Source of the DNA: Escherichia phage EP_H11
Sequence record: OP688485
Direction: 5' to 3' (one strand)
DNA: 64,000 bases
Shown here one piece after another: positions 15,959-22,208 of the stretch; within the stretch, counting starts at the first letter, position 1; every line of letters begins with the position of its first letter. The notes under the pieces are model-generated. The model had not been told where the DNA came from. It made no database searches and worked only from the letters and a program-made list of their open reading frames with translations. The translations under genes were made by a program, and so were the position numbers.

Positions 15959-16268
15959 TATTCCTGAAACTGTTTACGTTGAGAGCTCGTTCGCTCGGAC
16001 AATTGGTGCTGACGATCAGCACAGTAGTCGTATTGCTCCGATGAAGCTGCGTAAGAGTGGCTACATTGTTGGAGCTGGCTCATCGGTAGAGTTTCCGGTA
16101 GATAGTACGGTAACTGTAGACTCTATCTCTAATCTTTCTGTATCTTACCTGGGCTTAACTGCTCAGGTATTCTCTACAGACGAAGGTAAGTGGATTCGTC
16201 TGACTAACTCTAACAAGAACCATGCAGTACGCATCCATGCAGGTCAGAGTTTAGTCTATGGAAATTGA
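15948..16268 (+). CDS. hypothetical protein
   Basis: Start trimmed to the ATG at 15948, which overlaps the upstream stop; the N-terminal part of the track ORF lies inside the HD gene. Confidence 0.4.
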   Translation: MQINIPETVYVESSFARTIGADDQHSSRIAPMKLRKSGYIVGAGSSVEFPVDSTVTVDSISNLSVSYLGLTAQVFSTDEGKWIRLTNSNKNHAVRIHAGQSLVYGN

Positions 16269-17241
16269 GTCTCTAACTCGTATAAATGAATACTTGGTTA
16301 GGGTTACTCCCAGAGTTTACATGTTCGAAGCAGATAAGTATCCTGGTAATGTCCAGATAGCTAACGAACATAAGGGGGAGGAGCTCCGACTGTGTCCTAC
16401 CTGTGAACTTATGGGGGAACCAAACTCTAAGTGGACATTTTACTGGAACTACAATAAGCAGACTGGCATATGCCATCGTTGCCATTGTAAGTTCATACCT
16501 TTCTCGAATAAGAGTAAGGAAGAGTTAGAATTAGAGCTAACTATCCGTGGGTGGATAGCTCATTCTGATAAGCAGGTAGTCCGGAGTTTATCTTCGGTAC
16601 CAGAGATTCAGTATGAGAGGATGTTTGATCCTCCTTCTGATTTCTGTAAAGAGTATTTGGCTAACCGCAACCCGCTCCTGCAGGGTATGGAAGATTATTT
16701 CCAGATCCGCGAACTTAAGGGAGTAGGTGTGGCAGCTCCGATGTATTTTAAGGGTAAGATCATATCTTATACGATGCGTCTGTACGAGCCGATAGGTAAA
16801 AGGAAATACCATATTCCTCCTGGGGATAAGTATATCTATAGTCCTAATCGTGCTCTGAAGACTAGTCTGTACGGAGGTATGACTAAGTTCAGCTTATGCG
16901 AGGGTATGTTTGATGCTTTCGCAATGTTGCTGTTAGGCTACGATAACCCATTAGCTGTCCAGGGATCTTTCCTCACCGATACCCAGGCCAGGATGATGAG
17001 TCAGTTCTTCCCGGAAGAGGGTCAGATATTTTTGGACAGTACTGATTTATCTTTTGAATTACGTAATAGCGTAAGACAGAAGGTAAAGAGTATTCGTCAA
17101 CTGCGAGTGGTCTACAGCGATGGTGAGGATCCTGAGGAATTACTAATACGGAAACTGCAGAACGGTACTGACGAGTTCATCCAGTCCGTATTAGACAGAA
17201 GAGAGAACTTAATATGCAATATGATGTCGAAGGAATCCTAG
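16258..17241 (+). CDS. DNA primase (zinc-ribbon + TOPRIM-like)
   Basis: Zn-binding CPTCE...CHRCHC near the N-terminus and a TOPRIM-like EGMFDA block. Confidence 0.55.
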   Translation: MEIESLTRINEYLVRVTPRVYMFEADKYPGNVQIANEHKGEELRLCPTCELMGEPNSKWTFYWNYNKQTGICHRCHCKFIPFSNKSKEELELELTIRGWIAHSDKQVVRSLSSVPEIQYERMFDPPSDFCKEYLANRNPLLQGMEDYFQIRELKGVGVAAPMYFKGKIISYTMRLYEPIGKRKYHIPPGDKYIYSPNRALKTSLYGGMTKFSLCEGMFDAFAMLLLGYDNPLAVQGSFLTDTQARMMSQFFPEEGQIFLDSTDLSFELRNSVRQKVKSIRQLRVVYSDGEDPEELLIRKLQNGTDEFIQSVLDRRENLICNMMSKES

Positions 17242-18920: not shown

Positions 18921-21900
18921 ATGTTTCTGAATCACAATTTAGTTGGCGAAGTAGACTATGTCATTATCGGGGACGAGCGCGAGAATAACGATGCTCCTCC
19001 GTTTGCGGCATCGAATGCTGGTCAGACTCTTGATGTAGCGCTAATTACAGCTGGGGTACATAACAAAGTTGGTCTGGTAGAGATCAACCGAGATGGTACT
19101 TTCGATGAGCTGTCTAACATAGACGAAATCCGTGATAAGGATGGTCTGAACTTTTATGAATTATGTGCTAAGCATAACGTTAAGCATGTAATGACTTTGG
19201 GTCGCCAATTAGCTGCGACTATTTCTCCAGGCTATACGCATAAGAAGACTCTGGATAAGTTGCTGAAGTTCCCTCTGGGTAACATACCTGAGTATGGCTT
19301 TAAGCTGGCTGTAGTGATGCATCATGCTCAGGTAGAACGTAATCTGGATTCGGATCCTGGGTTATTGGATTCATGGATTGATCGTTTTAAGTTTCTGGTA
19401 TTCGGGCAGAAAGAATCCGAGTATAACGTAGAGTGGGAATTCGTAGACTGGAACGGCCTCCAGGAGTTCCTTAACGACATTATGTGGTCTGGGTACAAAG
19501 GTTACCTTGGTCTAGACTATGAGTCTAACGCAGCCGATTTATTCTCGGTGGACTTCCGGATTACTGGATTCAGTATCGCTAAGAAGATTGGCGATAAGGA
19601 AGCTAAGTCGGTCTGGTATAATGTTACCGGTAAGGAGACTCCGGAACAGCTGATGTTCTTGCGGGATTTCTTGGTTAAGTTCCAGGAACTGATCGTGGCG
19701 TTTAACTGCCCGTACGAGATTAAGGTTACGTGGCATTGGTTAGACGTGTTCTGTAAGTTTATCGATGCTATTGTAACTCTGACGATGCATGGCGAACGAA
19801 GCTCGTTGAAAGATGCTGCTCGTCGTTATTTACATGCAGACTTCTGGGAAGGATCGGTACACGAATGGAAGGATCGTTGGGCAGCTATCTTCAAGGATAT
19901 GAAGAAGCGTTGTACTCCTGAGCAGATTGCAGAGATTCAGTCTGGCGAATTCAATATTGAGCATCATCTAGCTCTTAAGGACGAGTACGAAAAACTCGTG
20001 GAAGCGGCTCCGACTAAGGCTGCTAAGAATCGTGTTCCTGTTAACTTCAACCAGTTTATGCTGGATAAGATAGCCGAACTATCGGAGGAGCTCGAAGAAT
20101 CCGAGATTATTTACTTGGCATCGTTCTACCCATATGAGTGGGGTGCGATTCCTCGTGAGATTCTTGGTGAATACTGCTGCTATGACTCAGCATACGGTGT
20201 GTTCATCCATGAGATGTTCTACGATAAGTATAAGGATGGGTATAACGTATATATGTTACATCCATACCTGGCATCTATCTTCGAAGCTAACGGTATTCGT
20301 TGGGATGACGAAGAGGCGACTAAGGAGTACGACTATTGCATGAGCAAAATGTCGGAGCACTTAGTTAGCCTGATCCCTAACCTTAAGCTACCTCCTGACC
20401 AGATGCTTACAGCTCGCGACTTTATCTATCGAGAGTTGCCGTACGAGAACGTATGGTACACTCCTGGTGGTCAAGAGCGCCGTAAGATGGTTACTACTCT
20501 GGCTGGGAAGATTGCTGATCTGTCTGGATTCTTCAACCCCAACAGTAACGATAAGGCTAATAAGGAGAAGTTCTGGAAAGCATATCTTACCGATGAGGTA
20601 GAGATGTGTACTATGCTATGGTCTGTAATGGACCAGCTTAAGGTACATGACTACTGGGATAAGACCCTACTGGAGATATCTAAGGGATTCGTGCCTAAGG
20701 ATTCGGAGAAACTGGAGAAGGAATTCTTCCGGGAGTTTCCGGTAGATGAGATCTTAACCAGGATCATCCAGTTCGGGGATACTGCTGAGTCTAAGCATGT
20801 TCGAGAGTTAATTGCCATGTGCGTCCAGGACGGTCTGGGAGCTTACGAAGAGCGATTCACGAATAAGTTTAAGGCAGATGTTCTCGATGCTCAATTGGCT
20901 ATTCACCAGTTGATGCTGGGAGTTAATCCGGATGACGAGTCTACCTGGAATACATCGTTCCGTATGATGGTTGACCTGAAGATGTATAAGCGTCACTACA
21001 AACAGATCGCTACGTACATTGATGGTAAGGTAGGACGCCAGACGGTATGGGCAGCTAAGCTACGTGATGGCTTACCTCCACTACGAGTTCGTAAGTACGA
21101 CTGGGATAATCCGAAGTTACAGGATGGTGAAGATTGCTACATCATGACTCCGGATTTTAACTCATTAGCTGCTATTACATCTCGCTGGCAGGCAGGTATT
21201 CATAACGTTCCTGGTGACAGTACTCTGCGTAATATCTGGGTATCTAAGCCGGAGGGTGGTCTGTGGTATCACCAGGACTTTAGCCAGGCTGAGCTGGTGA
21301 TGGTTAGCGTGTTCGCCGATGACTCGGATATGAAGAACGTATTCTTATCTGGTGGTGACATGCACCGATTCGTTAGCTCGATTGCATACCAGAAGACCGA
21401 ATCTGAGGTATCTGATGTTGAGCGTAAGGGTGGTAAGGCGATTAACTTCGCACTAGTATACCAGTCTAGCCTTGAATCGGTAGCGATGGTTGCTACTGGT
21501 GGTGATATGGAACGTGCTCAGAACCTAATGGACACGGTATTCGGTAAGTTCACTGGTCTTAAAGCATGGATTGATTCCACTAAGAAAAATGGCTTCGAGA
21601 CTGGGTATGCTTATGGTTACTTCGGTAACCGTATCAACCTGGAAGGTACCAACGTTAACTCTACTTCTGTGAACTACCCTATCCAGAATACTTCGTCGAT
21701 GGTTGCTGGCGCAGGTATGTACTTCCTGGATGAGGACTTTAAGCAGTCCAATATGGAAGCCGAAACTCACATCATGGTCCACGACTCATTGGATACCACA
21801 TCTGGAATTAACGAGATGTTCAAAGTATTCCAGAAGACTCGTGAGAATATGGAGGGAGCGATTCGTGAACTCTGGGATATGCCTATGCGTACCGATATCG

Positions 21901-22208
21901 AATTCGGTGCTCGGGGCGGTTCCTTGATGGGTCTGGACGACTATGGAGTTAATGAAGATGGCTCTGGATGGCTGATCGTCGAGGGTCGTGAATCTGCATT
22001 GGAGAAACTACTGGAAGCTCTCGATCAGTACAGCCAGTGGACTCCATACGTAGAGATCCTTAAGGAGAAGGAGAAGTTAAACTCTATAGCTAACAGTTTC
22101 AACTCCAAATCCGGTATTCGTTCCGACGGTACAGGCTGGGGATGTAAGTATATCGAGCTTAAGGCTAAAATAACCCTGGAGCCTAAACATGGCGAGAAAG
22201 CAGCGTAA
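18921..22208 (+). CDS. family A DNA polymerase
   Basis: Pol A motif A DFSQAELVMVS, motif B RKGGKAINFALVYQSS, motif C MVHDSL. Start trimmed to the ATG at 18921 behind GGAG. Confidence 0.85.
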   Translation: MFLNHNLVGEVDYVIIGDERENNDAPPFAASNAGQTLDVALITAGVHNKVGLVEINRDGTFDELSNIDEIRDKDGLNFYELCAKHNVKHVMTLGRQLAATISPGYTHKKTLDKLLKFPLGNIPEYGFKLAVVMHHAQVERNLDSDPGLLDSWIDRFKFLVFGQKESEYNVEWEFVDWNGLQEFLNDIMWSGYKGYLGLDYESNAADLFSVDFRITGFSIAKKIGDKEAKSVWYNVTGKETPEQLMFLRDFLVKFQELIVAFNCPYEIKVTWHWLDVFCKFIDAIVTLTMHGERSSLKDAARRYLHADFWEGSVHEWKDRWAAIFKDMKKRCTPEQIAEIQSGEFNIEHHLALKDEYEKLVEAAPTKAAKNRVPVNFNQFMLDKIAELSEELEESEIIYLASFYPYEWGAIPREILGEYCCYDSAYGVFIHEMFYDKYKDGYNVYMLHPYLASIFEANGIRWDDEEATKEYDYCMSKMSEHLVSLIPNLKLPPDQMLTARDFIYRELPYENVWYTPGGQERRKMVTTLAGKIADLSGFFNPNSNDKANKEKFWKAYLTDEVEMCTMLWSVMDQLKVHDYWDKTLLEISKGFVPKDSEKLEKEFFREFPVDEILTRIIQFGDTAESKHVRELIAMCVQDGLGAYEERFTNKFKADVLDAQLAIHQLMLGVNPDDESTWNTSFRMMVDLKMYKRHYKQIATYIDGKVGRQTVWAAKLRDGLPPLRVRKYDWDNPKLQDGEDCYIMTPDFNSLAAITSRWQAGIHNVPGDSTLRNIWVSKPEGGLWYHQDFSQAELVMVSVFADDSDMKNVFLSGGDMHRFVSSIAYQKTESEVSDVERKGGKAINFALVYQSSLESVAMVATGGDMERAQNLMDTVFGKFTGLKAWIDSTKKNGFETGYAYGYFGNRINLEGTNVNSTSVNYPIQNTSSMVAGAGMYFLDEDFKQSNMEAETHIMVHDSLDTTSGINEMFKVFQKTRENMEGAIRELWDMPMRTDIEFGARGGSLMGLDDYGVNEDGSGWLIVEGRESALEKLLEALDQYSQWTPYVEILKEKEKLNSIANSFNSKSGIRSDGTGWGCKYIELKAKITLEPKHGEKAA

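Follow-up and report, generated by a model that had tools for sequence, protein, structure and literature searches.

Can a phage whose DinG-type helicase lies between a primase and a family A DNA polymerase replicate without a hexameric helicase? This question was raised by a 64,000-nucleotide stretch of Escherichia phage EP_H11 (OP688485; hereafter, the window), for which the preliminary description proposed an unusual replisome with the DinG-type enzyme in place of the hexamer. The window was collinear with the genome of Escherichia phage vB_EcoM_IME392 at 92-96% identity. The source phage is an E. coli myophage resembling IME392, in the RP13/YerA41/SP-15 group of phages with hypermodified thymidine in their DNA. 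The primase, helicase and polymerase ORFs were all found on the + strand at the coordinates first assigned to them, and the three genes are a conserved core of the replication module. A sigma-70 promoter and terminator scan of 15300-23600 was uninformative for this phage, which has its own RNA polymerase (5 sites found versus 15 expected). The features considered in this work are listed in Table 1.

Table 1. Coordinates of the replication genes, their motifs and context genes in the window
Feature	Position (nt)	Strand	Basis or remarks
DnaG/T7 gp4-type DNA primase, 327 aa	16258..17241	+	Zinc-binding domain and predicted TOPRIM RNA-polymerase domain
Primase zinc ribbon	16393..16482	+	C46-x2-C49 ... 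C72-x2-C75
Predicted primase TOPRIM core	16885..17142	+	EGxxD (E215, D219), D260, DPEE (291-294)
XPD/DinG-family SF2 helicase, 545 aa	17214..18851	+	Pfam, PHROGs, fold, HMM alignment
Helicase motif I (Walker A) APTGAGKS, aa 49-56	17358..17381	+	
Compact FeS-type cysteine cluster, aa 105-132 (C105, C123, C131, C132)	17526..17609	+	
Helicase motif II DEAH, aa 170-173	17721..17732	+	
Predicted Arch-like insertion, aa ~189-311	17778..18146	+	AlphaFold model
C-terminal RecA-like domain, motifs V and VI	18567..18833	+	Pfam Helicase_C_2, aa 452-540
Family A DNA polymerase, assigned to the SP15-like subfamily	18909..22208	+	Pfam, PHROGs, PDB matches
RNase H	31244..31765	+	Context only: primer or R-loop RNA removal
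Family X DNA polymerase	37272..38045	+	Context only: pol beta thumb and HHH_8 domains
NAD-dependent DNA ligase	38110..40053	+	Context only

The ORF that shares its first 28 nt with the end of the primase gene encodes an SF2 helicase of the XPD/DinG (Rad3) family, in which an Arch-like domain accompanies a predicted FeS-type cysteine cluster. Pfam and PHROGs matches, the predicted fold and an HMM alignment to E. coli DinG established this membership. Specifically, the protein matched Helicase_C_2 over the curated cut-off (6.4e-14), ResIII, DEAD and phrog_2488 (5e-91), and its motif VI read QGSGRAIRS. The DEAH helicase with a four-cysteine FeS-type insert, as first described, was confirmed: the DEAH box was present at residues 170-173 and four of the five cysteines were located between motifs I and II, a clustering expected by chance at that place in ~3e-4 of trials. 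Members of the family carry their FeS domain at this position, in helicase domain 1 between motifs Ia and II. The AlphaFold model (pLDDT 89.3, pTM 0.86) was of low confidence in the cysteine region (residues 101-130, pLDDT 59-65). Its best PDB match was E. coli DinG (6fws, E 2e-25, TM 0.74), and the top 40 matches were all DinG, XPD or CasDinG structures, with TM scores of at most 0.74. The model placed two long helices (220-251 and 255-289) and a beta hairpin at the site of the XPD/DinG Arch domain, which is likewise an insertion in helicase domain 1. The family HMM aligned end to end with E. coli DinG, pairing C105 with C120 and C132 with C205. Because C131 was not conserved, just three of the four cysteines were retained in four relatives (36-57% identity to the query); most family members presented at least four cysteines in the insert.

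When compared to E. coli DinG (6fws/6fwr), the phage protein shared the SF2 core with motifs I-VI, the DEAH box, an Arch-type insertion and a cysteine cluster between motifs I and II. In contrast, the identity was only ~15%, the phage helicase was shorter (545 versus 716 aa), its cysteine region spanned 28 residues instead of 86 and contained an adjacent CC pair, and the gene is phage-encoded and sits between primase and replicase. The four-domain fold was also that of XPD, DDX11/ChlR1, RTEL1 and FANCJ, although the phage helicase was much smaller than the eukaryotic enzymes. Members of phrog_2488 from Ackermannviridae (e.g. SFP10), Vibrio and Rhizobium phages, YerA41 (YerA41_134) and Carin-5 aligned over the full length at 25-41% identity.

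The zinc-ribbon primase of the preliminary description also stood. The cysteines of both CxxC pairs (C46, C49, C72 and C75) were unvarying across eight homologues, as were the TOPRIM residues E215, D219, D260 and DPEE (291-294, including D291 and E293), while the second Asp of the canonical TOPRIM DxD motif was not conserved in the family. A Pfam search returned only Toprim_2 (19.7 bits, under the curated cut-off of 22.1). The family profile matched the RNA-polymerase domains of DnaG from S. aureus (4e2k, 4.6e-6) and Aquifex (2au3, 2.8e-5), and the best 25 PDB matches of the AlphaFold model (pLDDT 76.9) were all DnaG, T7 gp4 or Twinkle primases. As in T7 gp4 and T4 gp41/gp61, a zinc ribbon was combined with a predicted TOPRIM domain in ~330 aa and the primase gene was tightly coupled to a helicase gene. 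Unlike in those systems, the coupled helicase was a monomer-type SF2 enzyme and not a RecA-fold hexamer.

Regarding the polymerase, the ORF opened at TTG 18909, but translation probably begins at ATG 18921, the start given in the IME392 annotation. Pfam DNA_pol_A matched aa 766-1001 (nt 21204-21911; 6e-32), in agreement with the family A assignment made earlier. The best PDB matches were 9qhs (8.5e-40, residues 682-1068, including the C-terminal extension, which is common to the phiLo and YerA41 enzymes) and 9qlh/9qli. Judged by its sequence, the ORF encodes a SP15-like family A polymerase, a subfamily described recently whose members present an N-terminal UDG domain (10.1101/2025.03.26.645540) and among which IME392 has been named (PMC12686479). 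These matches, together with the co-occurrence of polymerase X and ligase, resembled the UDG-fused polymerases YerA41 gp144 and phiLo (Missoury et al. 2025). In contrast to them, the N-terminal ~200 aa gave no Pfam match to a UDG domain even at E<10 and aligned weakly with the YerA41 N-terminus. By eye, 'IIGDE..PPF..AG' and 'MHH' in this region resembled family 4 UDG motifs, a likeness at motif level only.

We then considered whether a hexameric helicase was missing. A 483-aa ORF (23475-24926) was examined as a hidden hexameric helicase and set aside because it presented neither a Walker A motif nor a Pfam or PHROGs match. The DinG-type protein was the sole helicase found inside the window, with no DnaB, SF4, SF3 or MCM enzyme there, which explains why no other had been seen before. 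Beyond the window, IME392 encodes AXY86094.1, which matched phrog_19 'DnaB-like replicative helicase' (2e-20) and, by profile, Aquifex DnaB (4nmn, 2.9e-5). The protein presented a Walker A motif (GRPGGGKS), and visual inspection of the alignment showed residues that fit DnaB motifs H2-H4. Its gene was located 4.7-6 kb to the left of where the window begins, with a UvsW-like SF2 helicase on one side and the RusA resolvase on the other. Unlike in the T7 and T4 primosomes, it lay ~22 kb from the primase-coupled helicase. Based on collinearity with IME392, we infer that the source genome carries this gene as well.

DnaB-like and DinG-like genes were also found together in Ab1-TPeters, RHph_TM30-type phages, RP13, YerA41 and Carin-5. 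In viral contigs, a single-protein query found no DnaB-like gene, while a three-sequence alignment recovered a copy in a 141-kb metagenomic contig that also carried a DinG-type homologue (L011, L046). In addition, phrog_2488 was present in 496 phage records. Many of these were ~157-kb phages that infect Salmonella, Klebsiella, Vibrio and Dickeya, one being SFP10 of the Ackermannviridae. T4 gp41-type helicases were also present in this group, indicating that the DinG-type enzyme commonly accompanies a hexameric helicase. Replacement of the hexamer was therefore not supported. The combination of primase, DinG-type helicase and family A polymerase in the proposed unusual replisome was real, but the DnaB-like gene of IME392 speaks against its no-hexamer part and makes a conserved accessory helicase most likely rather than a new replication machine.

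Among the XPD-family helicases XPD, DDX11/ChlR1, RTEL1 and FANCJ, several are accessory 5'-3' helicases at replication forks, with such roles established for DDX11, RTEL1 and FANCJ. An accessory fork role is likewise established for E. coli DinG (PMC2770101). We consider it probable that the phage DinG-type enzyme is an accessory 5'-3' helicase working at the replication fork while the DnaB-like hexamer opens it. The gene for this hexamer would lie a few kb to the left of the window, and the DinG-type helicase would be produced together with the primase. Its relatives DinG, XPD, DDX11, RTEL1 and FANCJ suggest that the helicase would travel 5'-3' on ATP, with single-stranded DNA bound and threaded between the cysteine-cluster and Arch domains. 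In this way it would rid the lagging-strand template of R-loops, D-loops, secondary structures or bound proteins and let the primase and polymerase advance. In the same block, the phage has genes for a multisubunit RNA polymerase of its own and for an RNase H, which makes transcription-replication conflicts and R-loops plausible substrates.

Conservation analyses recovered the gene order primase, DinG-type helicase, polymerase in nine related loci (L006, L007, L009, L011-L015 and L018), with helicase identity as low as 29%. The primase and helicase genes overlapped in about six of the nine, a tighter link than an accessory role requires. One DinG-type homologue carried an intein at the P-loop, an observation that also runs against such a role, and inteins usually persist in indispensable genes. 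Both findings would fit an arrangement, in our view unlikely, in which the DinG-type enzyme is the primosome or fork helicase that works with the DnaG-type primase on the lagging strand, leaving the DnaB-like protein for recombination-dependent replication or repair. XPD and DinG helicases move 5'-3', as DnaB does, and the DnaB-like gene, given its position between the UvsW-like helicase and RusA, could serve recombination instead. The primase lacks the DnaG-type C-terminal domain that binds DnaB; however, T4 gp61, a primase of similar size also without this domain, works with a hexameric helicase. We know of no XPD-family enzyme acting as a main replicative helicase. In addition, a DnaB-like protein with residues matching motifs H1-H4 accompanies the SP15-like polymerase across the lineage, including SP-15 and phiLo. 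The DinG-type gene is separated from primase and polymerase in YerA41, Carin-5 and SFP10, and these more distant phrog_2488 phages differ in this from the locus studied here. Because the coupling of the primase and helicase genes is tight and conserved to such low identity, the IME392/RP13-like lineage might use primase and a monomeric SF2 helicase as a dedicated primosome, beside or replacing the DnaB-like hexamer. We regard this as doubtful; such a primosome might be an adaptation for copying DNA with bulky hypermodified thymidines.

SP15-like polymerases excise dU ahead of the fork and bind polymerase X, their reported repair partner, and the reconstituted pathway needed no helicase (10.1101/2025.03.26.645540). 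Polymerase X and ligase were both encoded within the window, and the DinG-type enzyme could serve the uracil and abasic-site pathway of these three proteins, displacing the damaged strand or verifying lesions behind the fork. XPD-family enzymes do verify lesions in nucleotide excision repair. We consider this role quite improbable, as no nuclease or lesion-recognition partner adjoined the helicase gene and the helicase family occurs widely among ~157-kb phages (e.g. the Ackermannviridae), which use a T4-type family B polymerase not known to carry a fused UDG.

A link to transcription was also weighed, since the genes for the RNA polymerase beta' halves were located 4-9 kb downstream and, in YerA41, the helicase gene lies immediately upstream of RNA polymerase subunit genes. 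DinG and CasDinG unwind RNA-DNA hybrids (PMC10450177). The phage enzyme would then act mainly on RNA or RNA-DNA hybrids for the multisubunit RNA polymerase, e.g. in transcript release, and not in replication. This is very unlikely: in the closest lineage the DinG-type gene was always located between primase and polymerase and not beside the RNA polymerase genes. Moreover, the ~157-kb Ackermannviridae-like phages also carry the helicase family and, to our knowledge, have no multisubunit RNA polymerase.

Altogether, three replication genes of a known phage group were correctly annotated and the supposed anomaly was removed. In the literature, we found no dedicated study of phage DinG-type helicases and no experiment on any phage family member. 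A T7-like hexameric helicase is assumed in the published SP15-like replisome model, which leaves the DinG-type enzyme unmentioned. Phage XPD/DinG-type helicases constitute a family present in ~500 sequenced phages and, in one lineage, locked between primase and replicase.

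Three consecutive ORFs on the plus strand encode a primase, a DinG-type helicase and a polymerase, as the preliminary description had observed, and its naming of each product (zinc-ribbon primase, DinG/XPD-type helicase, family A polymerase) proved right. The primase and helicase ORFs share 28 nt, and the polymerase probably starts at the ATG at 18921, the start annotated in the closest genome, Escherichia phage vB_EcoM_IME392 (IME392).

Coordinates of the features discussed in the text
Feature	Position	Strand	Remark
Primase ORF	16258-17241	+	327 aa
DinG-type helicase ORF	17214-18851	+	545 aa
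Walker A APTGAGKS	helicase residues 49-56		
DEAH	helicase residues 170-173		
Polymerase ORF	18909-22208	+	1099 aa
Polymerase X	37272-38045		
NAD-dependent ligase	38110-40053		
5-hmdU DNA kinase	12422-13393	+	hypermodification cluster; PF18723, 4.4e-35
Nucleotide kinase			hypermodification cluster
Thymidylate-synthase homologue			hypermodification cluster
HD phosphohydrolase			hypermodification cluster
PIG-L deacetylase			hypermodification cluster
Glycosyltransferase-like protein			hypermodification cluster
Methyltransferase			hypermodification cluster
BCCT transporter	8174-9556	+	Pfam 1.6e-91
Stretch 3′ of polymerase	22491-23544		GC down to 0.418
ORF in this stretch	22571-23482		303 aa
RNA polymerase beta′, first gene	26582-28096	+	Rpb1 domains 3-5
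RNA polymerase beta′, second gene	29676-31244	+	Rpb1 domains 1-2

The helicase matched Helicase_C_2 (6.4e-14), ResIII and DEAD in Pfam and, over its full length, phrog_2488 'DNA helicase' in PHROGs (5e-91). By sequence, its best solved relatives were E. coli DinG and FANCJ, and an HMM of the phage family aligned end to end with E. coli DinG (108.6 bits). An AlphaFold model from 25 homologues (pLDDT 89.3, pTM 0.86) retrieved E. coli DinG 6fws as the top Foldseek match (E 2e-25, TM 0.74), followed by other DinG, XPD and CasDinG structures. Four of the five cysteines (105, 123, 131 and 132) lie between Walker A and DEAH, a clustering that arose in about 3e-4 of random-placement trials. The HMM alignment paired C105 with DinG C120 and C132 with DinG C205; in DinG these two cysteines are the first and last of the residues that ligate the iron-sulfur cluster. 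Low model confidence was confined to residues 101-130, as expected where a site needs a metal cluster. Most family members carry at least four cysteines in the insert; since four relatives (36-57% identical) have only three, C131 not being conserved, the predicted iron-sulfur cluster binding is likely but not certain. GenBank already holds the gene, labelled 'putative DNA helicase' (98.7% protein identity).

In the primase, the zinc ribbon (C46, C49, C72 and C75) was invariant among eight homologues, which also had in common the TOPRIM residues EGxxD (E215, D219), D260 and DPEE (291-294); the second Asp of the canonical DxD motif was not conserved. The family profile matched DnaG RNA-polymerase domains (4.6e-6 to 3.4e-3), and when the AlphaFold model (pLDDT 76.9) was compared with the PDB, the best 25 matches were all DnaG, T7 gp4 or Twinkle primases. 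The protein has no DnaG-type C-terminal helicase-binding domain and in size and architecture is comparable to T4 gp61 and to the primase fragment of T7.

The polymerase matched DNA_pol_A in Pfam (6e-32), and its best solved relatives were 9qhs (1142 aa; 8.5e-40, C-terminal extension included) and 9qlh/9qli (1306 aa), whose lengths match those of the phiLo and YerA41 polymerases described by Missoury et al. The 'SP15-like' subfamily is described as having an N-terminal UDG domain and a C-terminal domain, with polymerase X and ligase co-occurring (10.1101/2025.03.26.645540), and IME392 is named among the phages with such polymerases (PMC12686479). Polymerase X and an NAD-dependent ligase are encoded in the window; neither Pfam nor alignment confirmed a UDG domain at the polymerase N terminus.

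From these three genes the preliminary description had proposed an unusual replisome, reasoning that in phages a family A polymerase is usually accompanied by a DnaB or SF4 helicase. The premise is broadly right and holds here too, but the unusual replisome was not borne out. A canonical Walker A occurs in only three real proteins of the window, a Rad50-like protein, a nucleotide kinase and the DinG-type helicase, so that a reader limited to the window sees no other helicase. IME392 (116,460 bp) is collinear with the entire window (92-96% identity; 95% in the three-gene region), and two further helicases are annotated in it just past the window's left edge. One, AXY86094.1 (419 aa; IME392 51870-53129), matched phrog_19 'DnaB-like replicative helicase' (2e-20) and Aquifex DnaB 4nmn (1e-3 as a single sequence, 2.9e-5 as a profile); it carries the Walker A GRPGGGKS, and DnaB motif H2-H4 residues were matched by eye in the alignment. 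The other, AXY86095.1, is an SF2 helicase (ResIII and Helicase_C) and is followed by a RusA resolvase gene. This block of UvsW-like SF2 helicase, DnaB-like helicase and RusA resolvase is conserved between IME392 (51421-54779, or 5422-8780 of locus L002) and Rhizobium phage RHph_TM30 (Kleczkowskaviridae; locus L042). DnaB-like homologues were found in Ab1-TPeters, RHph_TM30-type phages, Carin-5, SP-15, phiLo, and Yersinia and Ralstonia phages, the phages in which SP15-like polymerases occur. The DinG-type helicase is likewise encoded by several of these phages, and a 141-kb metagenomic contig carries both genes (loci L011 and L046).

By tblastn, the DinG-type helicase was present in 496 phage records, among which phages of about 157 kb infecting Salmonella, Klebsiella, Dickeya and Vibrio formed the largest group (about 27% full-length identity). 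T4 gp41-type hexameric helicases also occur in this group, to which the Ackermannviridae phage SFP10 belongs. In SFP10 and YerA41 the DinG-type gene adjoins neither primase nor polymerase. Primase, DinG-type helicase and SP15-like polymerase kept this order in loci L006, L007 (which stops short of the expected polymerase position), L009, L011-L015 and L018, with helicase identities of 29-46%, and in about six of them the helicase gene overlaps or directly adjoins the primase gene. In the more distant loci L016-L039 primase and polymerase are not adjacent to the helicase, and the only primase-like ORF among these distant loci lies about 8.5 kb upstream of the helicase in L017. In L018 (IMGVR_UViG_3300008276_000002, 8615-11503) the helicase P-loop is split by an intein (Intein_splicing 3.2e-16) that contains an HNH endonuclease, a hint that the gene matters to the phage; the polymerase of this locus is broken into two ORFs. 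In L009 (Acinetobacter phage Ab1-TPeters) a 243-aa gene (9215-9946), annotated 'CRISPR/Cas system associated protein' and without a Pfam match, lies between primase and helicase.

A thymidine-hypermodification cluster lies upstream of the three genes; in the discussion of RP13-group genomes by Missoury et al., 5-hmdU DNA kinase 'could not be detected' (10.1101/2025.03.26.645540). A full-length BCCT betaine/choline/carnitine transporter, encoded inside the cluster, might import a base-modification precursor. The window also encodes dCTP deaminase, dUTPase and the halves of a multisubunit RNA polymerase, whose beta′ subunit is divided between two genes with their order permuted; the second is labelled 'beta subunit' in IME392. 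Sigma-70-like promoter matches were depleted in 15300-23600 (5 found, 15.3 expected from shuffles), consistent with transcription by an RNA polymerase that the phage itself encodes. Directly 3′ of the polymerase, the sole sizeable stretch near the three genes without a megablast match to IME392 has the look of a gene replacement or insertion; its ORF had no Pfam or PHROGs match. As far as about 59.4 kb the long ORFs lie almost exclusively on the plus strand, with cumulative GC skew climbing steadily, and the coding strand flips at about 59.6 kb; no tRNA genes were found in the entire window.

Since the coupling between primase and helicase genes is conserved, there is some room for a primosome built on the SF2 helicase, although we consider this improbable. 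The simplest interpretation is a conventional set, in which a DnaB-like helicase and a DnaG-type primase accompany the family A polymerase, plus an XPD/DinG-type accessory helicase that would be made jointly with the primase. Such an accessory role matches the known biology of the DinG family, as E. coli DinG assists replication through transcribed DNA and unwinds both R-loops and D-loops.
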